The notes: generated by a model from the letters alone, not told the origin. Counted from the first letter of the stretch, positions 19,142 through 35,309 are shown. The stretch: DNA of 64,000 bases from Actinomycetes bacterium (GCA_036001885.1 DASYTV010000295.1:3982-67981), one strand, 5' to 3'. Made by a program: numbers and translations.

Positions 19142-21901
19142 GTGACTGACGTCCTGCCGTTCATCATCGCGGGCCTCGCCGTCGGATCCGTGTACGCTCT
19201 GGCCGGCTCCGGGCTGGTCCTGACGTTCAAAACCTCGGGGATATTCAACTTCGGGCACGGTGCACTCGCGACGGTGGCCGTCTACGTCTTCTACGTCATG
19301 TACCAAGTGGCAGAGCTGCCTCTTGTGCCGTGCCTGGTCGTCAGTGTCCTCGGCGTCGGTGTGGCGCTCGGCCTGTTGATGGAGCGGCTGGCGCGGCGCT
19401 TGTCGAGGGCCCCCATCGCCCTGCAGACCGCGGCCACCGTCGGCCTGATCCTCATCGCCCAAGCGGGCGCACGGCTCGCCTTCGGTCCAGCTCCCCTGAC
19501 GTTTCCGCACTATCTCCCTGAGGGCACGGTCGAAGGTCTCGGAGTCGTGGTGACCTACGAGCAGGTCGTGACCATGGCGGTCGCCCTGGCCGCCACTTTG
19601 GCACTCGGGGTCTTCTTCAAGAAATCCCGTCTGGGCCTCGCCATGCGGGGTGCCGTCGACGACCCCACTCTGCTCGCGATGACCGGCACATCTCCCGTCG
19701 TGGTGCGTCGCGCCGCGTGGATCGCCGGGTCGATCTTCGTCTGCTTGTCTGGTGTGCTTCTGGCGCCCAGCGTGAACCTCGACTCGATGGTTCTGACCCT
19801 GCTGGTCGTCCAGTCGTTCGGCGCGGCGGCCATCGGGCGCTTCTCGCATATCCCCCTGACCTACGTCGGCGGCCTCGCGATCGGGGTGATCTCCGCGCTG
19901 ATCACCAGATACGTGAGCCAGACCAGCCAGTACTTGGCGGGACTGAGCCAGAGTGTCCCGTTCATCGTGCTCTTCATCGTGCTGATCGTCACTCCGCGGT
20001 CGAAGCTGGTCGACCACCGGACCAGCGCGCCTCGCCCCACCACTGGCTGGCGCGCTCCCGGCAGGGTGCAACTGGTCGGCGCCCTGCTGATGCTCGTCGT
20101 CCTGGCGTCCGGTCCGGTCTGGTTCGGCGCACGACTCCCGTCGTTCACGGTCGCACTCAGCTACGTCCTGCTCTTCCTTTCGTTGGGTCTGCTGGTCAAG
20201 AACTCCAACCAGGTCTCCCTGGCGCACATTGGCTTCGCCGCAACCGGGTGCGTTGCCTTCTCGGTGGCGCGGGTCGAGTGGGGGCTGCCATGGACAGTCG
20301 CCCTGGTTCTGGCCGCGCTCATCACCATCCCCATCGGCGCGTTCATCGCTTTCCCCGCGATCCGGCTCTCGGGAATCTTCCTGGCGCTCGCCACGTTCGC
20401 CTTCGGCCTGATCTTGGAGGTCATGTTCTACAACAGCGAGCTCATGTTCGGCCCGAGCACCGCCGGTCTGCCGATGCCCCGGCCGCAGGTCTTCGGCCTG
20501 GACACCGACGTCGGGTACTACTACCTGGTCCTGACCGTCGTCGTCGTATGCACGCTGTTTGTCGTCGTCCTTCAGCGCATGCGACTCGGCCGCCTGCTAC
20601 GAGGATTGGGGGAGTCTCCCGTCGCCCTCGAGACCAGCGGCGCCTCGGTGCGGCTCACGAAGCTCATCGTGTTCTGCCTCTCGGCCGGGATGGCGGCGAT
20701 AGCAGGCGCACTCTACGGAAGCACGTTCTCCAACGTCGGTGGCCTCTCGTTCCAGTCTTTCAGCTCGCTGACCTTGCTTGTCCTGTTGCTGCTCATGCCG
20801 GGTTCGGAACCCTGGTACGCGGTGCTGGGAGCCTTCTTCCTGGTCGTGCTGCCCACGTTCCTTCCAGGAGGAGAGACGGCGGCTGAGGTCATGACGCTGA
20901 TCTTCGGCGCTTCGATCGTCGTGGCGGGTCTTCAACAGGGGCGGCACCCCACCCTCCCGGCGCGGCTGACGGCGTTTCTGGACCGCGTCGGCGGTCGGAC
21001 GCCGCGTGAGCAACCGAGTGGGGCCAAGGAGAACGCCGCTCCTGTCGACGAGCGCACCCTGCAGGTCCCGAGCCGAGCATCCCAAAGCGATCAGTCCGGC
21101 GGCGCCGGTCTGGGCGTCCGAGACCTGAAGGTCCGCTTCGGTGGTCACCTGGCGGTCGACGACGTCAGCCTCGAGGCGCCGATGGGAAGGATCACCGGAC
21201 TGATCGGACCCAATGGAGCGGGGAAGACAACGACCTTCAACGTGTGCTCCGGTCTCCTGAAGCCGACTGCCGGTCGGGTCTTCCTCAAGGGAGAGGACAT
21301 CTCGTCCCGGCGGCCGGCCGCCCGGGCCGGTCGGGGACTGGGCCGCACGTTCCAGCGCATGCAGCTGTTTGACAGCATGACCGTTGCCGAGAACATCTCG
21401 CTTGGGCGTGAGGCCGGGCTGGCAGGTGCCGGCTTTCTCACCCAGATCCTCGGCAGGCCCCACGACCGCTCAGCGCTTGCCGCGGCGGCGACGGACGCCA
21501 TGCGGCTCTGCGGCATCAGCCACCTGGCGGACGCCCTGGCCGGTCAGCTCTCGACAGGGCAGCGGCGCATGGTGGAGCTCGCGCGTGCGCTCGCGGGGTC
21601 CTTCGACGTCCTCCTGCTCGACGAGCCGTCGTCGGGGTTGGACCGGGCGGAGACCGAGCTGTTCGGACGAGTGTTGCTTCGGGTCGTGCATGAGCGCGGC
21701 ACGGCGATTCTGCTGGTCGAGCACGACATGACCCTGGTCATGGACATCTGCGACTACGTCTACGTCCTCGACTTCGGGCAGCTGGTCTTCCAGGGCACGT
21801 CGTCCGAAGTGGCAGCCAGCGACACGGTACGGGCCGCTTACCTCGGCTCGGAGGAGATCGAACCCGCACCGGCGTCGGTCGTCCAAGGAGTGCGGCCATG
21901 A
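19142..21901 (+). CDS. Branched-chain-amino-acid-type (Liv) ABC transporter, triple fusion LivH permease + LivM permease + LivG ATPase (919 aa)
   Basis: N-terminal LivH-like TM domain. Central LivM-like TM domain (..IGFAATGCVAFS.. to ..LTLLVLLLLMPG..). C-terminal ABC ATPase with Walker A GLIGPNGAGKTT, LSTGQRR signature and Walker B LLLDEPSSGL. Confidence 0.85.
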   Translation: MTDVLPFIIAGLAVGSVYALAGSGLVLTFKTSGIFNFGHGALATVAVYVFYVMYQVAELPLVPCLVVSVLGVGVALGLLMERLARRLSRAPIALQTAATVGLILIAQAGARLAFGPAPLTFPHYLPEGTVEGLGVVVTYEQVVTMAVALAATLALGVFFKKSRLGLAMRGAVDDPTLLAMTGTSPVVVRRAAWIAGSIFVCLSGVLLAPSVNLDSMVLTLLVVQSFGAAAIGRFSHIPLTYVGGLAIGVISALITRYVSQTSQYLAGLSQSVPFIVLFIVLIVTPRSKLVDHRTSAPRPTTGWRAPGRVQLVGALLMLVVLASGPVWFGARLPSFTVALSYVLLFLSLGLLVKNSNQVSLAHIGFAATGCVAFSVARVEWGLPWTVALVLAALITIPIGAFIAFPAIRLSGIFLALATFAFGLILEVMFYNSELMFGPSTAGLPMPRPQVFGLDTDVGYYYLVLTVVVVCTLFVVVLQRMRLGRLLRGLGESPVALETSGASVRLTKLIVFCLSAGMAAIAGALYGSTFSNVGGLSFQSFSSLTLLVLLLLMPGSEPWYAVLGAFFLVVLPTFLPGGETAAEVMTLIFGASIVVAGLQQGRHPTLPARLTAFLDRVGGRTPREQPSGAKENAAPVDERTLQVPSRASQSDQSGGAGLGVRDLKVRFGGHLAVDDVSLEAPMGRITGLIGPNGAGKTTTFNVCSGLLKPTAGRVFLKGEDISSRRPAARAGRGLGRTFQRMQLFDSMTVAENISLGREAGLAGAGFLTQILGRPHDRSALAAAATDAMRLCGISHLADALAGQLSTGQRRMVELARALAGSFDVLLLDEPSSGLDRAETELFGRVLLRVVHERGTAILLVEHDMTLVMDICDYVYVLDFGQLVFQGTSSEVAASDTVRAAYLGSEEIEPAPASVVQGVRP

Positions 21902-22596
21902 CCGACTTCGCATTGCGCCTGGACGCTGTCACAGGAGGTTACGGAGACACCACCGTCCTGCGCGACGTCTCCCTCGACGTGAAGAAAGGTACGGTCGTCG
22001 CCCTGCTCGGTCCCAACGGCGCGGGAAAGTCGACGCTGCTCAAGATGATCTCCGGAGTGATCACGCCGAAACGAGGTCGGATTCTTCTCGGAGACTCCGA
22101 CGTCACTCGTCACAGTGTTCACCACCGAGCTTCCCAGGGCTTGTGCCATATCCCCGATGGGGGAGGCATCTTCCCTTCGCTGACCGTGAAGGAAAACCTC
22201 GTCCTGGCCAGCCCCAAGGGCATGGAGCGGGAGGCCATCGAGAGGGCAACGAACGCATTCCCGGCCCTGGGCCAAAGACTCGGCCAGGTCGCGGGCAACC
22301 TCAGTGGTGGACAGCAACAGATGCTCGCGGTCGTCAGGTCCTACCTCAGCTCCGCGGACCTCATCTTGATCGACGAGGTGTCGATGGGGCTCGCGCCGAT
22401 GGTGGTCGACGAGATCTTCGCCTTCATCAGCGACCTGTCGGCGCGCGGCACGAGCATGCTGCTGGTCGAGCAGTACGTCACGCGCGTTCTGGCCATCGCA
22501 TCACACGTCTACATGCTCAATCAGGGTTCGGTGACCTTGAGCTCCTCAGCGGAGGAGGTTCGCCGAAGTGACCTCTTCGAGCACTACATGTCATAA
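21898..22596 (+). CDS. livF: Liv-type ABC transporter ATP-binding protein (LivF-like)
   Basis: Walker A LLGPNGAGKST, LSGGQQQM signature, ILIDEVSMGL. Confidence 0.9.
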   Translation: MTDFALRLDAVTGGYGDTTVLRDVSLDVKKGTVVALLGPNGAGKSTLLKMISGVITPKRGRILLGDSDVTRHSVHHRASQGLCHIPDGGGIFPSLTVKENLVLASPKGMEREAIERATNAFPALGQRLGQVAGNLSGGQQQMLAVVRSYLSSADLILIDEVSMGLAPMVVDEIFAFISDLSARGTSMLLVEQYVTRVLAIASHVYMLNQGSVTLSSSAEEVRRSDLFEHYMS

Positions 22597-22687
22597 GGCG
22601 CCGTACCCGCAGGTTCAGGGTCGACTCCGCAAGCCCAAAGCCGTGAGCCCAGGAATATCGAGTAAACATCAACCAGAGGAGATGCAC

Positions 22688-23887
22688 ATGATCGGCTTCC
22701 ACCGTGCGCGAGTGCGAGGAACGGTTGGACTGGCGCTCGCGGGCTTGGTGCTCGCCACGATGGCGGCCTGCAGCAAGGACCAGCCCCTCACCAAGTCCAC
22801 CGCGACAGGCACACCCGTCAAAATCGGCGTCATCGTCAGTCTTTCCGGCAAGCCCCTTCCGGCTACGGCGGCCGCCGAGGGCCTCAAGGCGTGGGCAACG
22901 ACGGTCAACGGCAAAGGCGGCCTGCAAGGCCACCCGGTGGAAATCGTCGTCAGAGACGACGGAAACGACCCCACGAAATCTCTCACGGCCGTCAAGGAGC
23001 TCGTGGAGAAGGACGGCGTGGTTGCCATCAGCTCATGGACCGGCGTCGAGACGAGCTGGGCCGACTACGTCGAGAAGCAGCACATCCCGGTCGTCGGCGG
23101 GCAGAACTACGCGCCCGTGTGGCAGGCGAACCCCGTGTTCTTCCCCGTGCAGTCGACACTGGGGACAGCGATGACTTCGCAACCGTTGATGGCAAAGAAC
23201 GCCGGCGCGCGCTCGATCGGCTCCTACTACACGGCGGACGTCGCCAACGCCGTCGAGGCGGTCAAGGCAATCGACGGCATTGCGAGCTCTCTTGGCCTGC
23301 ACGCGACGTTCAATGCGGCGATCAGCTCGAGCCAGCCGAGCTTCATCGCGCCGTGCCTCGCCGCCAAGAAGGCCGGAGTTGACGCGATGATGATCGCGGG
23401 CGTGCCCGTGGAGCGGATCACGCCGAGCTGTGCCCAACAGGGCTTCAAGCCGATGTGGATCCTGCCTGGTGAGGTCGTGACCTCGCAGGTCCTGAAGACG
23501 CCCCAGCTCGGGGACGTCCTGGCGCCACAGATGGCCTTTCCGTTCTTCATCCAGGACTCCGCCACCAAGGACTACCGATCGGCGATGGAAACCAACTACC
23601 GCGGACCCAAAGACGAGAAGTTCAGCCCACTGACCTCGTCTGCCTGGATGACGGGGCTGGTTTACCGGCAGGCGTTCGACAACATCGGAGCCAAGACGTC
23701 GGTGACGTCCGCGGACGTTCTCGACGGGCTGTACCAGGTGAAGAACTTCACCGGTGGCGGACTGCTCCCTGGCCTCACCTACACGAAGGGCCAGGCGAAG
23801 CGGACCGTGGACTGCTTCTGGGAGACCAGAGTGCACGATGGCAAGTGGGTCGCCGTCAATGGGCTGAAGACGACCTGTATCTCCTGA
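22688..23887 (+). CDS. ABC transporter substrate-binding lipoprotein (LivK/type-I periplasmic-binding fold)
   Basis: Signal peptide with lipobox LATMAAC. ..IGVIVSLSGKPLPATAA..VEIVVRDDGNDP.. is typical of Leu/Ile/Val-binding-family SBPs. The aggag RBS sits 6 nt upstream of the chosen ATG. Confidence 0.85.
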   Translation: MIGFHRARVRGTVGLALAGLVLATMAACSKDQPLTKSTATGTPVKIGVIVSLSGKPLPATAAAEGLKAWATTVNGKGGLQGHPVEIVVRDDGNDPTKSLTAVKELVEKDGVVAISSWTGVETSWADYVEKQHIPVVGGQNYAPVWQANPVFFPVQSTLGTAMTSQPLMAKNAGARSIGSYYTADVANAVEAVKAIDGIASSLGLHATFNAAISSSQPSFIAPCLAAKKAGVDAMMIAGVPVERITPSCAQQGFKPMWILPGEVVTSQVLKTPQLGDVLAPQMAFPFFIQDSATKDYRSAMETNYRGPKDEKFSPLTSSAWMTGLVYRQAFDNIGAKTSVTSADVLDGLYQVKNFTGGGLLPGLTYTKGQAKRTVDCFWETRVHDGKWVAVNGLKTTCIS

Positions 23888-23962: not shown

Positions 23963-24445
23963 TCAGCCGGCCCGATCGAGGCCGCTGCCGGCCGCACCGT
24001 CGACGGGGACGGTCACGAGTGCGGACAGTGCCCCGAGCAGGCTGTGCGGGATTGCCGTCGGTCTCCGTGAGGCCCGGTCGACGTACACGTGGACGAAGTG
24101 GCCGGAAGCCGCGGGCCGGCCAGAACCCGCGGCATAGAGCACGATCTCGTACCGGACGCTGGATCGCCCAACGTGTCCCACGCGTAGCCCCGCCAGGACC
24201 TTGTCGGGGAAGCTCAACGGTGCCGCGAAGGTGCACTGTGACTCGACGCAGAGGCCGATCATCTGGCCGTCCCGCGGGTCGAGGCCGCCTTCGGTCACCA
24301 GCCAGGTCGTCACGGCCGTGTCGAAGAACGAGTAGTACTGGACGTTGTTGACGTGGCCGTGCATGTCGTTGTCCATCCACCTGGTGGTGATGGTGTCCCA
24401 GTGCGGGTACGCCGCGTCCGGAGGGGTGTTCATTTTCACCGTCAT
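23963..24445 (-). CDS. Hotdog-fold acyl-CoA thioesterase (4HBT/YbgC-like)
   Basis: ..WDTITTRWMDNDMHGHVNNVQYYSFFDTAV.. is the 4HBT active-site region. The ATG overlaps the upstream ALDH stop (ATGA). Confidence 0.8.
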   Translation of the reverse strand: MTVKMNTPPDAAYPHWDTITTRWMDNDMHGHVNNVQYYSFFDTAVTTWLVTEGGLDPRDGQMIGLCVESQCTFAAPLSFPDKVLAGLRVGHVGRSSVRYEIVLYAAGSGRPAASGHFVHVYVDRASRRPTAIPHSLLGALSALVTVPVDGAAGSGLDRAG

Positions 24446-25887
24446 CGGGCTCGCCTGCGAATGGCTACGGTTTTGGTCTTGCGGTAGAAGTCCAGACCGG
24501 CCAGGCCCTGCTCCTTGTGCCCGGTCCCCGAGTCTTTGAACCCGCCGAAGGGCATGTGGACGTCCCAACCGGACGTCGGAAGGTTCACCGCGACCTGGCC
24601 CACGTCGGCCCGAGCAGCAAAGGTGTGCGCCGCGTCGAGGTCGGAGGTGTACAGGGCCGCGGCAAGCGCGTATTTCGACGCGTTGAGCAGGTGGATCGCC
24701 TCGTCGAGGGTGTCGAAGGCCACCAGGGCCACGACCGGGCCGAAGACCTCCTCGGTCCAGATCTCCATGCTGGGATCGACGCCGGTCAGGACCGTCGGAG
24801 TGACGAAGCAACCGTGGTCGTGGGGAGCTTCGGCCGGTGCGGTTGCTCGCACGGCTCCGTTGGCGATGGCGCGCTCGATGAACCCTTTCACCGACTCGCG
24901 CTGGGCGGGCGACACCAGCGGACCCATGGAGATCCCGGGATCCAGACCGGATCCGAGCACATGCCGCTGGGCGGCCCGGACCAGCCCGTCGCGCACCTGG
25001 TCCAGCACGTCGCGCTGGACGAGCACCCGGCTCGTGGCAGTACAGCGCTGACCGGCCTGAGCGAAGGCGGCCGCGGCGATGCTCGCGACGGACTGCTCGA
25101 GGTCGGCGTCTGCCAGTACGATGGCGGCGTTCTTGCCACCTAGCTCCGCCAAGAGATGAACGTTCCGCTCCGCGAGCGATGCCTTCAGTGAGTACCCGAC
25201 ATCGTTCGATCCGGTGAAGCTGACGGCCTTCAAGGCGGGGTGTGCGACGAGGGCGCGGGCGATTCTGCTGCCCACCCCGGTGACGGTGTTCAGTACGCCG
25301 GGCGGTAGGCCCGCATCGTGCAACACGCGTGCCAACTCGATCGCGATGACTGGGGTGTAGGAGGCGGGCTTGAGGACGACACTGTTTCCGGCGATCAGCG
25401 CGGGAGCGACCTTCCGTGCCGGCGTCAGCAAGGGGTCGTTCCACGGGGTGATGGCGAGAACCACGCCCAGTGGTTCATGCACGGTCCATGAGATCACTTC
25501 GGGGTTCTCGTGGGGGAGCACGATGCCACGCTCGGAGCGGCCGAGACCGCCGTAGAACTCGAGGAAGTCGGCCGCCTTGGCTACCTCTGCGTTGGCCTCG
25601 CCGAGTGTCTTGCCCATTTCCCGGGTGAGCGTCCGGCTCAGCTCACTGTGGCGGTCACGCATGAGCTGGGCCGCGCGCAGCAGGACGCGTCCGCGGTCGA
25701 TCTGGCTCGTGTCACGCCAGATGGCGGCGGCTCGCTCTGCCGCCTCGAATGCGGCGTGGACGGCGCGCGCGTCCATGCTGGGGACCGTCGCCACGAGGTC
25801 GCGGGTGTCTGCGGGGTTGCGAACCTCGAGGCTCTCGGTGCCGGACAGCCACTCGCCGTCCACGAGGTTGAGGACGGACGGAAGCAT
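24442..25887 (-). CDS. Aldehyde dehydrogenase family protein
   Basis: ..ELGGKNAAIVLADADL.. and ..FAQAGQRCTATSRVLV.. supply the catalytic Glu and Cys motifs. Start placed at MLPSVLNLVDGEW; the upstream in-frame extension looks non-coding. Confidence 0.85.
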   Translation of the reverse strand: MLPSVLNLVDGEWLSGTESLEVRNPADTRDLVATVPSMDARAVHAAFEAAERAAAIWRDTSQIDRGRVLLRAAQLMRDRHSELSRTLTREMGKTLGEANAEVAKAADFLEFYGGLGRSERGIVLPHENPEVISWTVHEPLGVVLAITPWNDPLLTPARKVAPALIAGNSVVLKPASYTPVIAIELARVLHDAGLPPGVLNTVTGVGSRIARALVAHPALKAVSFTGSNDVGYSLKASLAERNVHLLAELGGKNAAIVLADADLEQSVASIAAAAFAQAGQRCTATSRVLVQRDVLDQVRDGLVRAAQRHVLGSGLDPGISMGPLVSPAQRESVKGFIERAIANGAVRATAPAEAPHDHGCFVTPTVLTGVDPSMEIWTEEVFGPVVALVAFDTLDEAIHLLNASKYALAAALYTSDLDAAHTFAARADVGQVAVNLPTSGWDVHMPFGGFKDSGTGHKEQGLAGLDFYRKTKTVAIRRRAR

Positions 25888-25895
25888 GGATGTAG

Positions 25896-27200
25896 TCACA
25901 AGGGGGCCTCGCTGACGATGTCGTGTCGGGAGTAGTCGTGCCATGCGGCGTACGGCTCGCCCGCGTGAAGGCGTTCGAGCAATGCGAGGACGCCCGCCGC
26001 GTCGATGGGGACCGGATGGTTCGGGCGGGGGTAGCTGTCGACGCAATCCGCTGCCATGGCGGCCAGCTCGTTGCGGTCGACGCCCAGTTCCGCCAGTGAA
26101 GTCGGAATGCGCATCCGCTGGCTGTGCTCAACGATCCAGCGGACGAACAGTTCGGCATCGGGCTCACCGCAGACGATCGCGGCCATGTCCGCGATCTGGC
26201 CCTCGCACAGGGGTCGTACATGGGCGAGGCAGTACGGGAGTGCCATGGCTACGGAAGCGCCATGCGGCAAGCCGGTGCGGGCGGCGATCGCGTAGGCGAG
26301 CGAATGGCCGAGCACCACCGAGGCGTTGAGCGCGAGACCAGCGTGGTACGCACCGAGCGCCGTACCGCAGCGGGATTCCAGATCACCCACCGCATAGGCA
26401 GCGGGCAAAGACCTCGACAGCAATGTGAGAGCCTCACGCGCAGCGGCAACCGTGAGCGGGGTCCGGAAGGTCGAAATGAGGGACTCTGCCGCATGACCGA
26501 TCGCGTCGAACCCACCTGAGGCGGTCACCGACGGCGGCAGTCCCAGCAACAGCTCGGGGTCGATCAGCACTATCCGCGGAACCAGATGCGGATGGACGAA
26601 CATCCGTTTCTGGTTGCCATGCCACAGCATGGCGACTGCCGTGGCCTCGGCGCCGGTGCCTGCCGTGGTCGGTACGGCGACGATCGGTGGCCCGGGCGAG
26701 ATGTCGGCAGTCGAGGACAGGCCGGCGGTGAGGTCGAGCGGGTTGGTGAGCGCGATGGACGCGAGCTTGGCAGTGTCGAGGGCGCTGCCGCCGCCTACCG
26801 CGACGACCGCGGCAATCTCGTTCACACTGTCGGGCAGCAGCGTACGAACAGTCTCCGGCGTCGGTTCGGCGGCGACGCCTGGGCCGCTCAGCACCGTGAA
26901 GCCGGCGCCTTGCAGCGAGTACCACGCCGGCCGGTGAAGCCCCAGCTGCATCACGACGTCATCGACGACCAACAGAACGGCACCGTGAGCGGGCGATATC
27001 CCCAGTGCGTGGAGTTCTGTGGCGCAGCCGGCCGAGGACCCCTTGCCGGCCAGCACTCGACTGGGCCCGGCGAACGGCCTCGTGGGAGCGGAGCAGAGCG
27101 AGCACATCGGTTGGCTGCTTCCTCTCGGGTATCTCGCGAGAAAACTGTGCGATCCAGGCCTCGCTTCTAGCGACGATCTGAGGTATGAATACGTAACCAC
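25896..27200 (-). CDS. Iron-containing (group III) alcohol dehydrogenase
   Basis: ..VAVGGGSALDTAK.. and ..GGFDAIGHAAESL..HGASVAMALPY.. are metal/NAD-binding motifs. The true start may be the internal Met at 27107 (MCSLCSAPTRPFAG..). Confidence 0.8.
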   Translation of the reverse strand: MVTYSYLRSSLEARPGSHSFLARYPRGSSQPMCSLCSAPTRPFAGPSRVLAGKGSSAGCATELHALGISPAHGAVLLVVDDVVMQLGLHRPAWYSLQGAGFTVLSGPGVAAEPTPETVRTLLPDSVNEIAAVVAVGGGSALDTAKLASIALTNPLDLTAGLSSTADISPGPPIVAVPTTAGTGAEATAVAMLWHGNQKRMFVHPHLVPRIVLIDPELLLGLPPSVTASGGFDAIGHAAESLISTFRTPLTVAAAREALTLLSRSLPAAYAVGDLESRCGTALGAYHAGLALNASVVLGHSLAYAIAARTGLPHGASVAMALPYCLAHVRPLCEGQIADMAAIVCGEPDAELFVRWIVEHSQRMRIPTSLAELGVDRNELAAMAADCVDSYPRPNHPVPIDAAGVLALLERLHAGEPYAAWHDYSRHDIVSEAPL

Positions 27201-27253
27201 GACTTCTCCGGCAGGTCAATCGCTCATCTGCGCGGACAGACAGAGGGGCAGGC

Positions 27254-28609
27254 ATGGACGACACGCGAACACAGCTGCTCGACATGATCGTCGCCCCCGA
27301 CTCGGCGTACGACCAGCCGTGGGGTGAGCTGGCATCGGCGCGCCTCAAGGCAGCCGACGAGCTGTTTCAGCAGCGACGCGAGCAGATACCGCTGCTGGCG
27401 AAGCGTGCCGAGGACGCCGGCGTCGCGAAGATCCGTGACTTCGACGATCTGGTGCCGCTCCTGTTCGCACACACCGTCTACAAGTCCTACCCGCAGTCCT
27501 TCTACGAGCGGGGCCGCTGGGACCGGATGTTGCAGTGGTTGAACACCCTTTCGGTGAACGACGTGACCGACGTCGACGTCGCGGGCGTGACCGACGTGGA
27601 CGAGTGGCTCGACCGGCTCTGGGCCGCCGGGCATGCGGTCATCGCCACCAGTGGTTCGAGCGGGAAGTGTTCCTTCCTGAACCACACCATGGGCGATCGG
27701 GCCAGGAAGACCCGCCACTTCAAGTACTCGTCCGGCTGGCCCTTCGCCCATGCCGACGGCGATCATGCCTACTTCTGGCTCGGCCCCTCGTCCGGGCGGA
27801 CCAGTGCCGTCGAGGCGTTCGTCGCGAACTCGGAGAACTGGGGCCGCCCGGGCGAGATCTTCGCGCTGTCCGACGAGCCACTGCTGATCTCAGACGTGAG
27901 CGAGACGGCAGCCTTTCGCGCCAAGATGGCCGGCGGTACGGCGACCCCGGACGAGATCGCAGACATGGAACGACGAGGTGCCGCGAAGGCCCAACGTGTC
28001 AGAGCCGATCTCCTCACGTTCACCGAGCAGATAGTCGGTTTCCGGCACCGACCGATCTTCCTGAGCGGCATGTGGAGTCAACACATGATGATCATCGAGC
28101 GCGCCCGGGAGCTCGGCGTCGGGGACGGCGAATTTCATCCAGACAGCGTCATCGGCGCGGGCGGCGGTGTGAAGGGCGTCACTCTGCCGCCGGACTACCA
28201 GGACCACATCGGCCGCTTCTACGGGGACGTCGTCAGGTTCGCGGTCTACGGAATGACGGAGCTCGCCCAGCCCCTACCGCGTTGTGAGGCCGATCGCTAT
28301 CACGCCGCCCCAGGCCTCATCATGCTGCCGCTGGACGACAGCGGTGAGCGGCTCCTTACGCCGGCGGACTCGACCGACGGACTGGTGCAGGCGCGCTTCG
28401 GGTTCCTCGACCTGGCCTACGACGGCCGGTGGGGCGGGCTGATCACCGGGGACCAAGTCACGGTCGACTTCTCGGAGAAGTGTCCGTGCGGAAGGTTCGG
28501 TCCGACTCTCCTCGACAACATCGGGCGCTTCGCCCAGGCCGGGCAGAGCGACCACATCGGGTGCGCGGGAACCATCGACGCCTATATCAGGGGAGTGACA
28601 GGAGCATGA
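27254..28609 (+). CDS. LuxE-family acyl-protein synthetase (adenylate-forming)
   Basis: ..AVIATSGSSGKCSF.., ..VIGAGGGVKG.. and the C-terminal ..FLDLAYDGRWGGLITGDQV.. parallel the TSSGTNGLKS, ITGGGWK and C-terminal blocks I recall from Vibrio LuxE. Stop overlaps the next start (ATGA). Confidence 0.75.
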   Translation: MDDTRTQLLDMIVAPDSAYDQPWGELASARLKAADELFQQRREQIPLLAKRAEDAGVAKIRDFDDLVPLLFAHTVYKSYPQSFYERGRWDRMLQWLNTLSVNDVTDVDVAGVTDVDEWLDRLWAAGHAVIATSGSSGKCSFLNHTMGDRARKTRHFKYSSGWPFAHADGDHAYFWLGPSSGRTSAVEAFVANSENWGRPGEIFALSDEPLLISDVSETAAFRAKMAGGTATPDEIADMERRGAAKAQRVRADLLTFTEQIVGFRHRPIFLSGMWSQHMMIIERARELGVGDGEFHPDSVIGAGGGVKGVTLPPDYQDHIGRFYGDVVRFAVYGMTELAQPLPRCEADRYHAAPGLIMLPLDDSGERLLTPADSTDGLVQARFGFLDLAYDGRWGGLITGDQVTVDFSEKCPCGRFGPTLLDNIGRFAQAGQSDHIGCAGTIDAYIRGVTGA

Positions 28610-29997
28610 CGACGATGAGCGACAGCCGTGTCCGGGTGCCCCATGTGGTCAAGGGCGAACGTGTCACCGGCGCGGACTGTGTGCATGGCCGCGAGGGCGA
28701 GCGCTTTGCCACCCCGGAGCTCGACCTGAACTCCCTTGTTTGGCCGAGGAGCATCCCCGGTCCCGCGTTCGACGTTCCGGTCGCTGAGATCATCGACGTG
28801 CTGGTTGAGGTAGGAAACTGGCTAGCCAAGGACCCGAAGGGTCGGCTCGAGGAGGCGTTGGTCTCGGCTCGACGGACCAGCGCGCTGCCCGCGGAAGTCG
28901 TCGATCGCTCCTACCAGGACCTGCCTAAGCTTTTCACCCGCGAGACCATGGAGTTCCAGATCAGGACCGAGCTCGGTGGTCCGGACGTGCTGGACGGATG
29001 GCGGGAGATCACCGGTGCGCCGAGCGGGCGGGTACATCGGATCCGCGCCTTCCCTCCGCGTCTGGTTCACATCATCGCCGGCAACTCGCCAGGTGTGGCC
29101 GCGGTCTCCATCGTGCGGGGAGCCCTGGTCAAGGGTCTCAACCTGATCAAGCTGCCGTCCAACGACCTCTTCACGGCCACGGCGATCCTGCAGGCTATGG
29201 CGGACGTCGCCCCGGGGCACCCGGTGACCCGGTCGTTCTCCGCTGTGTACTGGCGCGGTGGGGACGAACGGGTGGAAGCAACCCTGTTCCGCCCGCAGTT
29301 CTTCGACAAGCTCGTGGCTTGGGGTGGTGGAGGCACCATTGTCAACGCTCGGAACTACGTCGGTCCCGGATTCGAGCTCGTCGCGTTCGACCCCAAGACA
29401 TCCATCTCGCTCGTGGGCCGCGAGGCATTCGAGTCCGAGGCAGCCCTTCGAGCCGTGGCCGACCTCGCTGCGACCGACGCCACGCTCGTCGAACAGCAGG
29501 CGTGCGCCTCGTCGCGGTACCAGTTCGTGGAGGGCTCTCCCGAGCAGGTCGACCGCTACTGCGCACTCGTGCAGCAACGGATGGGAGTCCAGCGGCGGAC
29601 GAACAGTGCCGCCGGCCGCCCAGTGCCCGGCACCCTGCGCGTGGAGATCGAGGGGATTCGAGGCATGGAGCCCCTGTACCGGGTCTGGGGCGACTACGCG
29701 GGATCGGGCACCGTCGTCCGCTCTGAAGAGCCGGTGGAATTCCACCCTGACTTTCGGATCGTCAACGTCGTCCCGGTCACCGATCTCGCCGAGGGGGTCG
29801 CATTCGCCAACGTCGCGACGCAGACAGTGGGTGTCTATCCCCCTGGACGCAAGGAAGCGTTGCGCGACTCTCTCGCCGCGATGGGGGTGCAGCGCGTCGT
29901 GCCGCTCGGCTCGGCAGGTTCGGTGGATGCAGGCCTGCCACACGACGGCTTCATGCCGTTGAACCGGTTCGTCCGGTGGGTCAACGACGAGGGTTGA
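28606..29997 (+). CDS. LuxC-family acyl-CoA reductase (aldehyde-forming)
   Basis: ..LVHIIAGNSPGVAAVSIV.., ..NDLFTATAILQAMADVAPGHPVTRSFSAVYW.., ..LVAWGGGGTIV.. parallel the LuxC blocks AGNVP, TDPFTA, HPITRS.S.IYW, VAWGG. GGAG RBS before the ATG. Confidence 0.75.
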   Translation: MTTMSDSRVRVPHVVKGERVTGADCVHGREGERFATPELDLNSLVWPRSIPGPAFDVPVAEIIDVLVEVGNWLAKDPKGRLEEALVSARRTSALPAEVVDRSYQDLPKLFTRETMEFQIRTELGGPDVLDGWREITGAPSGRVHRIRAFPPRLVHIIAGNSPGVAAVSIVRGALVKGLNLIKLPSNDLFTATAILQAMADVAPGHPVTRSFSAVYWRGGDERVEATLFRPQFFDKLVAWGGGGTIVNARNYVGPGFELVAFDPKTSISLVGREAFESEAALRAVADLAATDATLVEQQACASSRYQFVEGSPEQVDRYCALVQQRMGVQRRTNSAAGRPVPGTLRVEIEGIRGMEPLYRVWGDYAGSGTVVRSEEPVEFHPDFRIVNVVPVTDLAEGVAFANVATQTVGVYPPGRKEALRDSLAAMGVQRVVPLGSAGSVDAGLPHDGFMPLNRFVRWVNDEG

Positions 29998-30091
29998 ACC
30001 ACCCGACAGACGACTGGACAGGCCGCGACAGCCGTCGTCCACATTGTACGGGCGGAAGGCCCGACAAGACGTCGAACATCCAGGAGATTCA

Positions 30092-31030
30092 ATGTCATCA
30101 GCCACCATCACGCGCACCCCACTCACCGAGCACATCGGCGTCGAACTGCGCGGCGTCGACCTCGACCAGCCGCTCACCGGACCCGTGCGAGAGGCCTTGC
30201 ACGACGCGTGGGTCGAGTTCGGTCTGGTGCTCATCCGAAACGCGCTGCACTCGAAAGAGGCACATCTGGGACTGAGCGAGGTGTTCGGGGAAATGGAGCC
30301 CTCGGCCACCTCCTTCCTCAACTCGGTCGAGAACCCCTACCTGATGGAGCTGCGACAGACTCCGCACAACCCCAAGGCGCGTCGCTACATCGTCAACGGC
30401 GAGGAGCGGATCGGCTACATCGGCTGGCACTGGGACCAGGCCTTCATGCCCACCATTGTGCGTGGTGCGGTGCTGCGCATGGTGCAACCCGCAGGCGCCG
30501 CCGGTTCCACCGGCTTCATCGACGGGATCGCCGCATACGGCCGGCTATCCGAGGAGACGAAGGCAAGGATCGACAGTCTCGAGGTGGTCTATGAGTTCAA
30601 CCCGGCGATGGAGCAGAACCCCGGCTTCCCGCGTGACGTCGTGTCGCTGAACGGCGTTCCGGGCAAGCGCAACTTCCCACCGGTAGTTCATCCGTTGGTG
30701 ATCACCCAGCCCGAGACCGGCCGCAAGGTGCTGAAGCTCTCCCCGACGCATGTGCGGTATGTGCTGGGGATGGACAAGGACGAGAGTGATGCGCTCATCG
30801 CCGAACTCGCCGACGTCCTGACCGAGGACGAGTACGCCTACTACCACGCGTGGGGCCCCGACGACGTCATCATCTGGGACAACTGGCGGGTGATCCATAG
30901 CGCCGCCGGTGTGCCGGAAGGAGTTTCCCGATACGGGATTCGCACCACGATCGCGGGCGACTATGACGTCGGACGCTACCTCGATCCCGGCCTGGACAAG
31001 AACAACCCGCCCGACCGCTTCGACGACTAG
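30092..31030 (+). CDS. TauD/TfdA-family Fe(II)/2-oxoglutarate-dependent dioxygenase
   Basis: ..GWHWDQAF.. His-x-Asp facial-triad region and overall layout fit the family. Start chosen at MSSATIT with a caggag RBS. Confidence 0.8.
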   Translation: MSSATITRTPLTEHIGVELRGVDLDQPLTGPVREALHDAWVEFGLVLIRNALHSKEAHLGLSEVFGEMEPSATSFLNSVENPYLMELRQTPHNPKARRYIVNGEERIGYIGWHWDQAFMPTIVRGAVLRMVQPAGAAGSTGFIDGIAAYGRLSEETKARIDSLEVVYEFNPAMEQNPGFPRDVVSLNGVPGKRNFPPVVHPLVITQPETGRKVLKLSPTHVRYVLGMDKDESDALIAELADVLTEDEYAYYHAWGPDDVIIWDNWRVIHSAAGVPEGVSRYGIRTTIAGDYDVGRYLDPGLDKNNPPDRFDD

Positions 31031-31056
31031 CCGTCACGCCGCACAGGAGGCGCCAG

Positions 31057-32175
31057 ATGAACAAGACGACCCGAGCGGCGATCGTCCGAGGCCCGGGGCG
31101 ACCGTGGGAGATCGCCGACCTCGAGCTGGACGAGCCGAAGGCCCACGAGGTTCGGATCCGCTTCATGGCGGCCGGGCTGTGCCACTCGGACGACCATCTG
31201 CGCACCGGTGACATGCCCGTACGCTTCCCGATGGTCGGCGGCCACGAGGGTGCCGGTATCATCGAGGCGGTGGGTCCCGGGGTGAGCAGGGTGGCTGTCG
31301 GCGACCACGTGGTCTGCTCCTTCATTCCGGTGTGCGGCGTGTGTCGTTACTGCTCGACCGGGCACCAAAACCTCTGCGCGCAGGCCACTAACGGCTCGAC
31401 CGGAATGTTCTCCGATGGCGGTTTCCGGTTCCATGCCGGCGGTGAAGACCTCGGCGGCCTGTGCGTGCTCGGCACGTTTTCGCAGTACGCGGTGATTCCC
31501 GAGTGGTCCTGTGTCGTGGTCGACGATGACGTCCCGTTCGACGTCGCCGCCCTGCTCGGATGTGGGGTGCCGACCGGCTGGGGATCGGCGGTGTACGCCG
31601 CGGGAGTGCGCGCGGGTGAGACCGTGGTCATCTACGGCGTCGGTGGTGTCGGGTGCAACGCCGTGCAGGGCGCCCGGTACGCGGGGGCGAAGAACGTCAT
31701 CGCCGTCGATCCCGTCCCGTTCAAGCTGGAGATGGCCAAGGTATTCGGGGCCACGCACACGTTCACCGACGCGCAGGCCGCCCACGGCTTCGTGGTCGAC
31801 GCGACACTCGGCCAGCTCGCCGATCACTCCGTCATCACGATGGGTGTGCTGAGCCAGGACGTCGTCGGCAAGGCCATCCAGATCGTCGGCAAGACCGGCA
31901 CGGTGACGATCACGTCGATGGGCAAGATCAAGGAGCTCGCCGTGCCCGTGCACGCGGGTTTGCTCGTCGGCTACGAGCGGCAGATCCACGGGACGTTGTT
32001 GGGGTCCTGCAACCCGCTCCATGACATTCCGAGGCTGGTGGGCCTGTACCGCTCCGGTGACCTCAAGCTCGACGAGCTCATCACCGCACGCTACGCGCTG
32101 GACGAGATCAACCAGGCCTACCGGGACATGCTCGACGGCAACAACATTCGCGGCGTGATCCTCCACGAGCACTGA
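31057..32175 (+). CDS. Zn-dependent alcohol dehydrogenase (MDR family, mycothiol/NDMA-dependent-ADH-like)
   Basis: ..GLCHSDDHL..GHEGAGIIEAVG.. is the catalytic Zn site. ..CGVCRYCSTGHQNLC.. is the structural Zn site. ..GVGGVG.. is the NAD fold. Confidence 0.9.
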   Translation: MNKTTRAAIVRGPGRPWEIADLELDEPKAHEVRIRFMAAGLCHSDDHLRTGDMPVRFPMVGGHEGAGIIEAVGPGVSRVAVGDHVVCSFIPVCGVCRYCSTGHQNLCAQATNGSTGMFSDGGFRFHAGGEDLGGLCVLGTFSQYAVIPEWSCVVVDDDVPFDVAALLGCGVPTGWGSAVYAAGVRAGETVVIYGVGGVGCNAVQGARYAGAKNVIAVDPVPFKLEMAKVFGATHTFTDAQAAHGFVVDATLGQLADHSVITMGVLSQDVVGKAIQIVGKTGTVTITSMGKIKELAVPVHAGLLVGYERQIHGTLLGSCNPLHDIPRLVGLYRSGDLKLDELITARYALDEINQAYRDMLDGNNIRGVILHEH

Positions 32176-32205
32176 ACCCGGCACCGACCGGAGAAGAGGA
32201 CCCAC

Positions 32206-33672
32206 ATGACGATCGCACCGGCCACCCCGGCAATCGAAAAGCTGCCCGCCGACAATACCCATCTGATCGGCGGCGAGTGGCTGCCGGCCGCCGGTGGCGA
32301 GGTCATCGACGTCATCAACCCCGCCACTACGGACGTGTTGCGCACGGTACCCCGCGGTGCGGCGGCGGACATCGACGCGGCCGTACAGGCGGCGACCGCG
32401 GCGTTTCCCGCTTGGCGCGACACCAGCCCGTCGGTGCGTGCGGAGCTGCTGTACCGGTGGGCCGACCTGTGCGAGGCGCACGAGCGCGATCTCGACCAAC
32501 TCGAGTCGATGGAGGTCGGCCGGCCGCTCCGAGGGGCCTCACCCATCCGTCGAATGTTGGTCTACATCGCGGGCCTCGCCGACAAGGTCACCGGCCTCAC
32601 CCTGCCTACCCACACACCCGACGTGCTCGGTATGACGCTCCGCGAACCGTACGGCGTCGTGGGCAGCATCATCCCGTGGAACGTGCCAGGGCCGATGTTC
32701 GTCAACGACGTGGCGCCCGCGGTCGCGGCGGGCAACACCATCGTCGCCAAACCCGCCGAGGACGCGCCATTGACGGCATTGATGCTCGCCGCACTCGCGC
32801 TCGAAGCGGGCATCCCGCCCGGGGTCATCAACGTCGTCACGGGTTACGGGGCGGAGGCCGGGGCCGCATTGCCCGCCCACCCGGGCATCCGGCGAATGAG
32901 CTTCACCGGCTCGCCGGCCACCGGCGCACTCGTCATGGCTGCGTCCGCGAAGCGCCTCATTCCGGTGCACCTCGAGCTGGGCGGCAAGTCACCGCAGGTG
33001 ATCCTGGACGACGCCGACCTGGCTAAGGCCGTGCCGGACGTGGTCCGCAGCATCACGTTCAACACCGGACAGACCTGCGCCGCCGGATCGCGAGTGGTCG
33101 TCGACCGGCGGATCCACCGCGAGCTCGTGCGCGCGCTGCACGACGCGTTCACCAAGGTGCGCATCGGTCCGTGGTACGAGAACGTTCAGATGGGGCCGTT
33201 GGTCAATGCCAGGCAGCACGAGCGTGTCCTCGGCTACATCGCCAGCGGACGGGACGAGGGCGCCCAACTCGTGTGCGGCGGCAAGCCGACCGGCGATGAG
33301 TACAAGTCCGGCTTCTTCATCGAGGCCACGTTGTTCGACAACGTCGATCCTGGCATGCGCATCGCCCAGGAGGAGATCTTCGGTCCCGTCTTGTCCGTCA
33401 TCCCGGTCGATGGCGAGGAAGAGGCCCTGGAGGTTGCCGACGGCACCGCGTACGGCTTGGCCGCGTCTGTGTGGACCACCGACGTCGCTCGGGCCGTGCG
33501 GATGGCGAAAGGGCTGCAGGCCGGGCGCGTGACGATCAACGCGGCACTGTCCGCATCCACTATTGGCGCGCCGTTCGGCGGTTACAAGAACAGTGGCTTC
33601 GGCCGGACGATGGGTACCGACGCCGTGCTCGACTACACGCAGGTCAAAGCCGTGGAGATCCACGCGGACTAG
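32206..33672 (+). CDS. Aldehyde dehydrogenase family protein
   Basis: ..LELGGKSPQVIL.., ..FNTGQTCAAGSRVVV.., ..EEIFGPVLSVIPV... Confidence 0.9.
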   Translation: MTIAPATPAIEKLPADNTHLIGGEWLPAAGGEVIDVINPATTDVLRTVPRGAAADIDAAVQAATAAFPAWRDTSPSVRAELLYRWADLCEAHERDLDQLESMEVGRPLRGASPIRRMLVYIAGLADKVTGLTLPTHTPDVLGMTLREPYGVVGSIIPWNVPGPMFVNDVAPAVAAGNTIVAKPAEDAPLTALMLAALALEAGIPPGVINVVTGYGAEAGAALPAHPGIRRMSFTGSPATGALVMAASAKRLIPVHLELGGKSPQVILDDADLAKAVPDVVRSITFNTGQTCAAGSRVVVDRRIHRELVRALHDAFTKVRIGPWYENVQMGPLVNARQHERVLGYIASGRDEGAQLVCGGKPTGDEYKSGFFIEATLFDNVDPGMRIAQEEIFGPVLSVIPVDGEEEALEVADGTAYGLAASVWTTDVARAVRMAKGLQAGRVTINAALSASTIGAPFGGYKNSGFGRTMGTDAVLDYTQVKAVEIHAD

Positions 33673-33737: not shown

Positions 33738-35309
33738 ATGACGCAGCCGGCTGCTGACGTGCCTGAATGGGATACGGAGCTCGATGAGCTCGAACGCCGA
33801 CGTGCGTGGGCGAAGGAGCACGGCGGACCCGGCGCCATCGCGCGACAACGTGCCGCCGGCCGGGGCCTGGCCCGGGAGCGCATCGACCAGCTGGCCGACG
33901 AGGGGTCGTTTCGTGAGATCGGCTCGTTGACAGGTGTGGCCGAGTACGACACGGCCAACCGGGTGCTGGGGGTCGTCCCCGCGAACCCGATCATCGGCCG
34001 CGCGCACATCGGCGGCCGGCCGGTCGCCTTGCTGGCGGATGACTTCACCCTGCGGGGAGGCTCCGCCGACAGCACGATCGTGGAGAAGTGGGCATTCATC
34101 GAACGCCATGCACTGGCGTATCGAACGCCGCTGGTCCGGCTGGTGGATGCGGCCGGCGGGAGCGTGAAGACCATCGAACGTCATGGGGCAACGGTGATCC
34201 CCGGATACGAGTGGCCGGTAGCCGAGCAGATGACCACGATTCCCGTCGTCGGAGTCGCACTCGGCCCGTGCGCGGGGTTCGCCGCGGTGAAGGTCGCGAT
34301 GTCCCACTTCTCGGTGATGGTCAAGGGGACCAGCCAGGTGTTCGCGGCGGGGCCCGCCGTGGTGGCTGCCGGCTTGGGCGATACCGTCACCAAGGAACAG
34401 CTCGGGGGCTCCGCCGTCCACGCCCGCGGCAGCGGCGTCGTCGACAACGAGGCTTCCACCGAACGGGACGCGGTGGATCAGGCGAGAAGATTCCTGTCCT
34501 ATCTCCCGAGCAACGTCTTCGAGCTCCCGCCGGTCGCGGTCAACCACGACAACCCTCGACGTGCCGACGAAGCCCTGGCCTCTGTAGTCCCCAGGAACAG
34601 TCGCAAGCCGTATCCCATGCGGAGCATCGTCGCGAGCGTCGTGGATGCGGGGTCCCAGCTCGAACTCGGGCGTTCGCACGGCCGGTCCCAGATCACCATG
34701 CTAGCGAGAGTCGACGGGCGCACGGTGGGAGTCACCGCGAGCGACCCGATGCATTACGGCGGGGCGCTGACGGCGTCCTCAGCGGAGAAGCTGACCCGGT
34801 TCGTGGATCTCTGCGACACGTTCCACATTCCGGTCGTGACCTTCCAGGACTGCCCCGGGATGATGATCGGGCGAACGGCGGAGGCGGAGGGCACGATCCG
34901 CAAGGTCTTGCGCGCCCGCATGGCGATCGCTCAGTCGACCGTTCCCTGGTGCACGTTCTTTGTCCGCCGCGCCTTCGGAGTCGGTGGCGCGCTTTGCGGC
35001 CCACTGGGCCGGGCATCGGTACGGTACGCCTGGCCATCCGCTCGATGGGGGTCCTTGCCCCTGGAAGGCGGCGTGGAGGTGGCCTATCGTCGCGAGATCG
35101 CCGAGGCCGTGGATCCCCAAGCGCTGCTCCATTCCCTCACGCGGAGCTACGCCGAGCTGGCTTCGCCGTTCCGCACCGGTGAGCGTTTCGGCATCGAGGA
35201 GATCGTGGATCCACGGCAGACCCGTACCGTCATGTGCGAATGGGTGGCCGACGCGTATCGGCTGCTGCCGGAGACTCTCGGCCAGAAAGCCAAGGGCTAC
35301 CGGCCCTGA
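33738..35309 (+). CDS. Acyl-CoA carboxylase carboxyltransferase (beta) subunit, orphan (no biotin-carboxylase or BCCP gene nearby)
   Basis: Two crotonase-like CT halves: ..GRPVALLADDFTLRGGS.. and ..ITMLARVDGRTVGVTASDP... Confidence 0.8.
   Translation: MTQPAADVPEWDTELDELERRRAWAKEHGGPGAIARQRAAGRGLARERIDQLADEGSFREIGSLTGVAEYDTANRVLGVVPANPIIGRAHIGGRPVALLADDFTLRGGSADSTIVEKWAFIERHALAYRTPLVRLVDAAGGSVKTIERHGATVIPGYEWPVAEQMTTIPVVGVALGPCAGFAAVKVAMSHFSVMVKGTSQVFAAGPAVVAAGLGDTVTKEQLGGSAVHARGSGVVDNEASTERDAVDQARRFLSYLPSNVFELPPVAVNHDNPRRADEALASVVPRNSRKPYPMRSIVASVVDAGSQLELGRSHGRSQITMLARVDGRTVGVTASDPMHYGGALTASSAEKLTRFVDLCDTFHIPVVTFQDCPGMMIGRTAEAEGTIRKVLRARMAIAQSTVPWCTFFVRRAFGVGGALCGPLGRASVRYAWPSARWGSLPLEGGVEVAYRREIAEAVDPQALLHSLTRSYAELASPFRTGERFGIEEIVDPRQTRTVMCEWVADAYRLLPETLGQKAKGYRP

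Follow-up and report, generated by a model that had tools for sequence, protein, structure and literature searches.

A pair of adjacent genes in a 64,000-nucleotide stretch of DNA from an Actinomycetes bacterium (GCA_036001885.1, DASYTV010000295.1:3982-67981; the window hereafter, with a GC content of about 67%) probably encodes a two-component carboxylic acid reductase of the LuxE/LuxC type, which would consume ATP and NAD(P)H and serve a catabolic branch. The first gene, named here ORF-X (ORF, open reading frame; 27254-28609, + strand), encodes a protein of 451 amino acid residues which a family profile identifies as a predicted, adenylate-forming and divergent LuxE-like acyl-protein synthetase. 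The second (28606-29997, + strand) encodes a predicted LuxC-like acyl-thioester reductase of 463 residues with the PF05893 domain. The stop codon of ORF-X and the start codon of the LuxC-like gene overlap as ATGA at 28606-28609, as read directly in the sequence. This pair and six neighboring genes had been proposed in an earlier, sequence-only reading of the same DNA, and all eight were found in the orientation given there, with coordinates exact or off by a few codons. Genes were called by third-position GC bias, which is 0.80-0.88 in all eight, and the same gene models had been called independently by the Joint Genome Institute (JGI) on a 35-kb metagenome contig of identical sequence. Pfam confirmed the families of seven of the genes; ORF-X was the exception.

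The LuxC-like protein passed the PF05893 check that the sequence-only reading had put forward, with 161.7 bits (cut-off of 21) over model positions 3-401 of 401. Alignment with the LuxC of Photobacterium (PDB: 7xc6_A; 7e-27) places Cys300, within a QQAC motif, opposite the catalytic Cys of the DQQAC motif, and Cys300 thereby corresponds to the catalytic residue (Cys286/296) of Photobacterium LuxC. This cysteine is kept in at least 95% of 59 LuxC-like partner sequences from other genomes. Judged by its sequence, the protein is a member of the LuxC family and not an orthologue of the LuxC of luminous bacteria, because its score on the NCBIfam LuxC equivalog NF052251 is 131 bits, with a cut-off of 750.

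ORF-X, searched as a single sequence, matches nothing in Pfam, NCBIfam or the PDB sequences even at E<=10, and the PF04443 (LuxE) check proposed for it was negative at this threshold. A word-indexed search gave 1,593 matches to the family, and among the 120 matches listed none carries a Pfam domain and the name is nearly always "hypothetical protein"; the family is large and tightly conserved, and in an exhaustive search it comprises 853 clusters at 50% identity. The homology to LuxE is visible only with a family profile. The profile, built from 84 diverse relatives, found LuxE (7xc6_E) as its best PDB match with E=1.7e-13, followed by a PaaK ligase at 2.5e-8 and weaker matches. Among the individual relatives, 12 of the 84 matched Pfam LuxE weakly (3.5e-6 at best) and 10 matched Pfam AMP-binding.

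The catalytic set of LuxE is formed by K238 in a GGGWK loop, R354/355 and the acyl-accepting C-terminal C364; the cryo-EM structure of LuxC-LuxE places this cysteine in a short flexible C-terminal motif and shows that the usual ANL C-terminal subdomain is absent (PMC9157457). In the profile alignment, the GGGxK motif of ORF-X is aligned to GGGWK, with G304, G305 and K307 each kept in at least 90% of the 84 relatives, and R425 is aligned with R354/355. The alignment stops 14 residues short of the LuxE C-terminus; ORF-X is thus aligned almost to the end of LuxE and has no larger C-terminal region than LuxE. C437, which is kept in at least 90% of the relatives, lies 12 residues past R425 and 14 before the C-terminus, within a flexible tail that is the lowest-pLDDT segment of the AF2 model. 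We concluded that ORF-X is a predicted, divergent LuxE-like acyl-protein synthetase, because LuxE is the best match of the profile and the signature Lys and Arg are conserved, together with a C-terminal Cys in a corresponding position. The pair is of the LuxE/LuxC type rather than generic, as had been claimed: PF05893 and Cys300 support one partner, and the precedence of LuxE over PaaK in the profile search together with the Lys, the Arg and the putative acyl-acceptor Cys at the C-terminus supports the other. Neither the placement of both proteins in generic ANL-ligase and aldehyde-dehydrogenase families nor the loss of the acyl-transfer residues, which had been named as outcomes that would contradict the claim, was found. 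Separate from C437, residues C344, H350, C410 and C412 of ORF-X are at least 90% conserved family-wide, including a CxCGR motif, and could form a candidate metal site.

The AF2 model of ORF-X has a pLDDT of 94.2, with a less confident C-terminal tail, and contains a P-loop at T132-K138. Foldseek comparison of the model with the PDB assigns it a PaaK-family ANL fold, and on this basis ORF-X might be an ordinary PaaK-type acyl-CoA ligase, with the LuxC-like protein acting as a free acyl-CoA reductase or CoA-acylating aldehyde dehydrogenase and both linked through diffusible acyl-CoA instead of acyl transfer between the proteins, an arrangement that we regard as unlikely. Such a link is used by SauT and SauS in the sulfoacetate pathway. 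PaaK-family CoA ligases make up all of the top structural matches, the AMP-binding matches of 10 of the 84 relatives agree with it, CoA-dependent enzymes abound in the surrounding island, and LuxC accepts acyl-CoA in vitro (PMC9157457; bioRxiv 2025.08.11.669332). However, LuxE stands five orders of magnitude above PaaK in the profile search, the catalytic Lys of ORF-X lies in a LuxE-type GGGxK loop and not in a C-terminal A10 motif, and its flexible C-terminus carries a near-invariant Cys. Furthermore, the window contains a true PaaK-type ligase (52276-53643, - strand), which matches HCL at 1e-40 and PaaK at 2e-36, whereas ORF-X has no phmmer PDB match. ORF-X shares the ANL N-terminal fold and the P-loop with the PaaK-family ligases PaaK1/2, BT_0428, HCL, ClxA and AjiA1, with TM-scores of 0.5-0.56; nevertheless, its identity to them is 12-15%, and in these enzymes the catalytic lysine belongs to a mobile C-terminal subdomain and the product released is acyl-CoA, while ORF-X shows the LuxE-type lysine loop, a conserved terminal cysteine and a LuxC-type partner called obligate. 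Direct similarity and a lysine in a C-terminal subdomain, which characterize PaaK-type ligases, are both missing from ORF-X, and the fold alone is shared.

The distribution of the pair was studied by scanning one genome per species with a closer, 24-sequence ORF-X alignment. Relatives of ORF-X were found in at least 148 species genomes of Actinobacteria and Alpha-, Beta- and Gammaproteobacteria, and 80 loci (numbered with L below) were kept from these genomes for comparison; all ORFs of the loci were clustered and the recurrent clusters annotated. The closest relatives belong to an uncultured Actinomycetota metagenome-assembled genome (85% identity) and to Nocardioides immobilis (81%). Actinobacterial hosts include Nocardia, Streptomyces and Mycolicibacterium; other hosts are Hydrocarboniphaga, Nevskia, Solimonas, Steroidobacteraceae and Porticoccaceae, in addition to Pseudomonas lini, P. 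taiwanensis, P. resinovorans and P. citronellolis, as well as Variovorax, Ramlibacter, Piscinibacter, sphingomonads, Brevundimonas and Hyphomonadaceae. These non-luminous hosts are typical of bacteria that degrade hydrocarbons, terpenes and steroids. ORF-X proteins of actinobacteria and proteobacteria are 60-69% identical, and the identity of each LuxC-like protein to that of the window tracks the ORF-X identity, locus by locus and across phyla, which points to co-transfer and co-evolution. An ATGA or GTGA at the end of ORF-X overlaps a downstream ORF of at least 400 residues in 41 of 73 ORF-X genes; translational coupling is therefore a trait of the family. Coupling and co-evolution, as well as the family assignments and the conserved residues, can be read from the sequences themselves.

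Two or three ORF-X paralogues are present per genome in several cases (L010/L059, L009/L052, L022/L035/L050, L073 and L074), some of them in tandem or up to 45 kb apart, which suggests a family of related substrates. On plasmid pLA3 of Novosphingobium pentaromativorans US6-1 (L087, 7521-14508) the order is reversed, with the LuxC-like gene before the ORF-X relative, and GlcD/GlcE/GlcF-type glycolate (2-hydroxy-acid) oxidase genes lie directly after the pair; here the LuxC-like gene is annotated as "acyl-CoA reductase" with the GO term bioluminescence, and the ORF-X relative as "hypothetical protein".

The chemistry, the physical complex and the direction of the reaction proposed for the pair are modeled on the Photobacterium enzyme. 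ORF-X would adenylate a free carboxylic acid by means of its P-loop, Lys307 and Arg425, and would pass the acyl group to its own C-terminal Cys437; from there the flexible tail would deliver it to Cys300 of its LuxC-like partner, which would reduce the thioester with NAD(P)H and release a free aldehyde. In the window, the acid would probably be imported by the adjacent ABC importer, or the 4HBT thioesterase would free it from a CoA ester. The aldehyde may be handled here by a nicotinoprotein alcohol dehydrogenase, an Fe-dependent alcohol dehydrogenase and aldehyde dehydrogenases, and in other lineages by short-chain dehydrogenases/reductases (SDRs) or aldo-keto reductases. By this route a carboxylate barred from direct beta-oxidation could become an aldehyde or alcohol open to oxygenase attack. 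Judging from the context, the substrate would be a hydrophobic, branched or alicyclic acid; the fatty (long-chain) substrate of the sequence-only reading was an assumption. The reverse reaction is unlikely, because ATP would need to be made from AMP and pyrophosphate with the energy of a thioester.

Several points weigh against a two-component acid reductase. The Pfam LuxE model PF04443 leaves ORF-X outright unmatched, and Cys437 corresponds to LuxE Cys364 by position, as a residue located beyond the end of the hidden Markov model alignment. Foldseek ranks PaaK-type CoA ligases first and does not return LuxE, in a comparison that is handicapped for LuxE by the 118 resolved residues of its PDB entry. 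About one quarter of the loci have no LuxC-like gene directly downstream of ORF-X, and in three loci a TauD gene follows ORF-X directly with no LuxC-like gene between. Every member of the ORF-X/LuxC-like family is known from its genes alone. The pathway logic is also incomplete: a reductase converting acid to aldehyde would cycle futilely with an aldehyde dehydrogenase encoded beside it if the two shared a substrate pair, and therefore the neighboring enzymes must have another carbon as their target or come into play once an oxygenase has acted.

Among the closest known systems is the LuxC-LuxE system of Photobacterium phosphoreum (7XC6, PMC9157457), which likewise consists of two genes encoding an adenylating synthetase and a reductase of aldehyde dehydrogenase fold; the catalytic Cys of LuxC and the GGGxK lysine and the arginine of LuxE are present in the window pair, as is a C-terminal cysteine that corresponds to that of LuxE by position. 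The two systems differ in gene order, since the LuxE-type gene here precedes the LuxC-type gene with a 4-nt overlap and with no luxD, luxA or luxB between. They also differ in ORF-X itself, which is 78 residues longer than LuxE and missed by Pfam LuxE, and in their setting, as the hosts here are non-luminous degraders living in soil and water and the neighbors are catabolic enzymes, transporters and TauD-type dioxygenases.

The carboxylic acid reductase (CAR) of Nocardia and Mycobacterium carries out the same net reaction, in which acid, ATP and NADPH give an aldehyde via an enzyme-bound thioester, and it holds adenylation, phosphopantetheinyl carrier and SDR-type reductase domains in one protein of about 1,170 residues. 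In contrast, the pair would carry the acyl group on a cysteine of its synthetase, and its reductase is of the aldehyde dehydrogenase fold. P. citronellolis carries a CAR-like gene near the pair, so both systems coexist.

LuxC has been described as the only characterized member of its similarity cluster (bioRxiv 2025.08.11.669332), and LuxC/LuxE annotations are found in flagellin glycosylation islands of non-luminous bacteria (PMC4875605). No description of the ORF-X/LuxC-like family was found in the open-access literature on non-luminous or catabolic LuxC/LuxE, and the view that such a branch is not a described part of actinobacterial lipid or steroid catabolism agrees with the searchable literature, where no description of it was found. 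Hundreds of non-luminous genomes show an annotation gap, with "acyl-CoA reductase" genes lying beside a conserved 450-residue "hypothetical protein", which we identify here as the missing LuxE-type partner. If the proposed function is correct, the pair would be a second natural family of carboxylic acid reductases, compact, two-component and without phosphopantetheine, whose many paralogues may offer diverse substrate ranges for aldehyde and alcohol biocatalysis, and it would mark an unrecognized reductive step in the aerobic breakdown of recalcitrant acids.

In the window, the pair is divergent from an operon whose first gene encodes an Fe-dependent alcohol dehydrogenase of 403 residues (25896-27107, - strand; PF00465 and PF25137), with a start codon backed by cross-species alignment and by the JGI gene calls. 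It is followed by genes for aldehyde dehydrogenase 1 (485 residues; 24442-25899, - strand; PF00171, 518 bits) and a 4HBT hotdog-fold thioesterase (160 residues; 23963-24445, - strand; PF13279 and PF03061); the aldehyde dehydrogenase gene overlaps each of its two neighbors by 4 nt. Downstream of the pair and on the same strand are genes encoding a TauD/TfdA-family Fe(II)/2-oxoglutarate dioxygenase (312 residues; 30092-31030, + strand; PF02668), a Zn alcohol dehydrogenase (372 residues; 31057-32175, + strand) and aldehyde dehydrogenase 2 (488 residues; 32206-33672, + strand; PF00171, 533 bits). The Zn enzyme scored 506.6 bits on the NCBIfam model TIGR03989 (cut-off of 440), which assigns it to the NDMA-dependent nicotinoprotein alcohol dehydrogenases, and aldehyde dehydrogenase 2 scored below the cut-off of every NCBIfam equivalog. 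The arrangement of both flanks, as described in the sequence-only reading, was borne out by Pfam and the gene models.

Neighbor frequencies within 4 kb were determined in the 55 loci where ORF-X is complete and flanked by at least 4 kb on each side. A LuxC-like gene is present in 46 of them (84%), SDR genes in 56%, enoyl-CoA hydratase in 31%, TauD-family in 25%, aldo-keto reductase in 22%, major facilitator superfamily (MFS) transporter in 20%, a fused ArsR-MarR regulator in 18%, Amidohydro_2 and acyl-CoA ligase in 16% each, Zn alcohol dehydrogenase in 15%, P450 in 13%, aldehyde dehydrogenase in 9% and Fe-dependent alcohol dehydrogenase in 5%. The pair is usually located in catabolic islands. 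The aldehyde and alcohol enzymes that had been taken as its own set are real surroundings in the window; however, the Fe-dependent alcohol dehydrogenase/aldehyde dehydrogenase/4HBT operon, the Zn alcohol dehydrogenase and the second aldehyde dehydrogenase do not belong to the core system. Their conservation is confined to L007 and L008, the two closest relatives, and judged by this distribution they are lineage-specific accessories; other lineages show SDR, aldo-keto reductase or Zn alcohol dehydrogenase genes directly beside the pair. The earlier suggestion that the 4HBT thioesterase takes the place of LuxD has weak comparative support: close orthologues (77-78% identity) are found in L007 and L008 and relatives of 48-52% identity in five other loci, which gives 7 of 80 loci with a related gene (48-78%) within 10 kb, and four other loci have a PaaI-like hotdog protein beside the pair. 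Overall, the sequence-only reading was right about the enzyme family, while its core partners and fatty substrate were not established. Amidohydro_2 relatives occur in 22 of 80 loci, directly beside ORF-X in the proteobacterial L038, L042, L045 and L053.

The link with TauD is stronger than had been realized, and the SDRs, aldo-keto reductases, ABC importer and monooxygenase module had been missed. TauD-family genes occur in 25 of 81 loci and lie, for the most part, less than 4 kb from the pair. These partners fall in three subfamilies, with at least 50%, 38-41% and 25-30% identity to the window TauD, and are placed downstream of the LuxC-like gene, upstream of ORF-X, divergent, or directly after ORF-X. 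The PDB matches of the window TauD are at family level: aryloxyalkanoate dioxygenases (1e-28), TauD (1e-24), TfdA (4e-20) and AtsK (1e-13). Readings of this partner as acting on sulfonates, sulfate esters or in ether cleavage were dropped, as none of them accounts for the reductase.

The recurrent oxygenase partners raise the possibility that reduction of the acid exposes the former carboxyl carbon, or the position beside it, to an oxygenase. Extended to the whole family, this would make the pair the core of a widespread strategy of reducing first and then oxygenating, with lux operons as a specialized offshoot, a proposal that we put forward as speculative and quite unlikely as a whole. In this scheme, a protein cysteine would serve to activate a carboxylate that blocks beta-oxidation, reduction would yield the aldehyde, and the thioester or aldehyde would be attacked by a TauD-type oxygenase in many lineages or by a luciferase-family oxygenase in actinobacteria, with an outcome such as one-carbon shortening or cleavage beside the former carboxyl group; luminous lux operons would derive from such an older catabolic acid-reductase/oxygenase module. 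The linkage to TauD-type and luciferase-family genes provides a testable handle on the origin of the aldehyde-supply module of lux operons.

The luciferase-family (PF00296) monooxygenase of the window (11881-12948, + strand) is its sole PF00296 gene and lies 14 kb upstream of the pair, in a module with an SDR (13022-13699, + strand) and a SnoaL_4 protein (13714-14268, + strand), all identified by Pfam. In L088 the order on one strand is SDR, luciferase-family monooxygenase, SDR, SnoaL_4, ABC importer, ORF-X and LuxC-like gene, and in Nocardia flavorosea (L012) it is ORF-X, LuxC-like gene, monooxygenase, SnoaL_4 and SDR, with 55% (monooxygenase) and 65% (SnoaL_4) identity to the window. The PDB matches of the monooxygenase include the functional homodimeric luciferase EsLuxA of Enhygromyxa salina (5e-20) and V. 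harveyi LuxA (6e-14). Its scores on the NCBIfam models of luciferase-alpha (52.6 bits, cut-off of 600) and luciferase-beta (43.6 bits, cut-off of 500) are low, and F420-dependent luciferase-like monooxygenase models score it equally to luciferase-alpha; by sequence it is not a LuxA orthologue. The absence of luxAB and luxD next to the pair, as stated in the sequence-only reading, holds with this distant gene taken into account: among the 58 predicted window proteins no Pfam match to LuxD-type PF02273 was found, and the locus has neither a luciferase of the LuxA/LuxB clade nor LuxD. A gene for an NADPH-dependent F420 reductase, NpdG, which scored above its NCBIfam cut-off, lies just upstream of the monooxygenase (10033-10686, - strand).

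LuxB-less operons of the types luxCEDA, luxCAED and DExxCxxA have been reported in Enhygromyxa, Leptospira, Nocardia, Streptomyces and Frankia (bioRxiv 10.1101/2023.02.27.530324). They resemble the present loci in that non-luminous bacteria, actinobacteria among them, combine LuxC/LuxE-type genes with one luciferase-family monooxygenase; nevertheless, they contain luxD, which is missing here, and a LuxA-clade monooxygenase near the LuxA/LuxB branch point, whereas the window monooxygenase is far from LuxA and not adjacent, and the commonest oxygenase partner of the pair is TauD-type. It is very improbable that the pair is the aldehyde supply of a LuxB-less and LuxD-less "protoluciferase" system, in which the monooxygenase would convert the aldehyde to the acid, possibly with weak light, or to a formate ester by a Baeyer-Villiger reaction. 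The linkage of monooxygenase, SDR and SnoaL_4 to the pair in three arrangements (window, L088 and L012), the matches to EsLuxA and LuxA, and the reports from Nocardia, Streptomyces and Frankia speak for it; but the luciferase-alpha score is no better than that on F420-dependent models, an NADPH:F420 reductase gene adjoins the monooxygenase, related monooxygenases (24-55% identity) occur in 3 of 80 loci, close to the pair in one of them, and the published lux-like operons all contain luxD with luxC before luxE.

That the pair is biosynthetic, supplying a fatty aldehyde or alcohol to the synthesis of wax esters, sulfated lipids or some other lipid product while lying in a degradation island incidentally, is hardly probable: several proteobacterial loci do join the pair with two SDRs, an EmrB-type MFS transporter and a Sulfotransfer_3/DUF1214 pair, and the known non-luminous LuxC/LuxE contexts are biosynthetic (flagellin glycan islands, PMC4875605; the tambjamine reductase TabE), but most neighbors are importers (ABC with binding protein, TonB receptors) or degradative (acyl-CoA dehydrogenase, enoyl-CoA hydratase, thiolase-like/DUF35 pairs, P450, old yellow enzyme, amidohydrolase_2), the hosts are typical hydrocarbon, terpene and steroid degraders, and no wax synthase or other lipid-assembly gene was found among the annotated recurrent neighbors. 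Sulfotransfer_3 and DUF1214-related genes lie near the pair in L008, L009, L010, L015, L017, L022, L053, L056 and L074, which include Nocardioides immobilis and several proteobacteria; the two stand side by side in about five of these loci and occur singly in the others. A link to isoprene was considered since Variovorax WS11 and Ramlibacter WS9 carry the pair, and it was rejected, with no iso genes among the annotated flank neighbors.

The 146-bp divergent promoter region between ORF-X and the Fe-dependent alcohol dehydrogenase gene contains the motif TGAATACGTAACC (27186-27198), which is conserved in the window, L007 and L008 while the surrounding intergenic DNA is poorly conserved. It has a single copy in the window and forms a direct repeat upstream of ORF-X in L007 and L008; no inverted repeat was found in this region. 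The motif is a candidate operator site, possibly for the GntR/FCD regulator encoded at 38692-39468. On the other side of the divergent operon, an ABC importer of the HAAT (branched-chain-amino-acid-type) group (19142-23887, + strand) is encoded by genes for a fused permease/ATPase (19142-21901, + strand), an ATPase (21898-22596, + strand) and a Peripla_BP_6 lipoprotein (22682-23887, + strand), all assigned by Pfam; an importer of this kind is likewise encoded directly upstream of the pair in Streptomyces, in L004/L007 and L008, and in both L088 and L089. The binding protein, TauD and SnoaL_4 were searched for clues to the substrate and gave family-level PDB matches only. A bile-acid reading was discarded, as the 7alpha-HSDH-like SDR scores far under its cut-off and the BaiE match of SnoaL_4 has E=0.8.

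The description of the remainder as a beta-oxidation locus was fair. The other parts of the window form a dense catabolic island that holds at least eight genes for acyl-CoA dehydrogenases, seven for enoyl-CoA hydratases and about 12 for SDRs, together with two thiolase-like/ChsH2-OB pairs, a family III CoA-transferase, CoA ligases, a carboxyltransferase, GntR and TetR regulators and three Amidohydro_2 genes (42851-43768, + strand; 49039-50196, - strand; 59906-61114, - strand), and this content resembles that for branched, alicyclic or steroid-like acids. The closest solved relative of the PaaK-family CoA ligase at 52276-53643 is 2-hydroxyisobutyryl-CoA synthetase (PDB: 6hdw; 1.3e-40), and beside this ligase a gene (51590-52240, - strand) encodes a protein of 217 residues without Pfam or NCBIfam match. 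The acyl-CoA carboxyltransferase subunit (33738-35309, + strand) is encoded directly after the second aldehyde dehydrogenase; no biotin carboxylase partner for it was found in the window, and it is absent at the same position in the 85%-identical relative L004. Finally, two adjacent integrase-core ORFs (rve and rve_3; 8860-9880, + strand) resemble the remnant of an insertion sequence and are situated about 2 kb from where the catabolic island starts.

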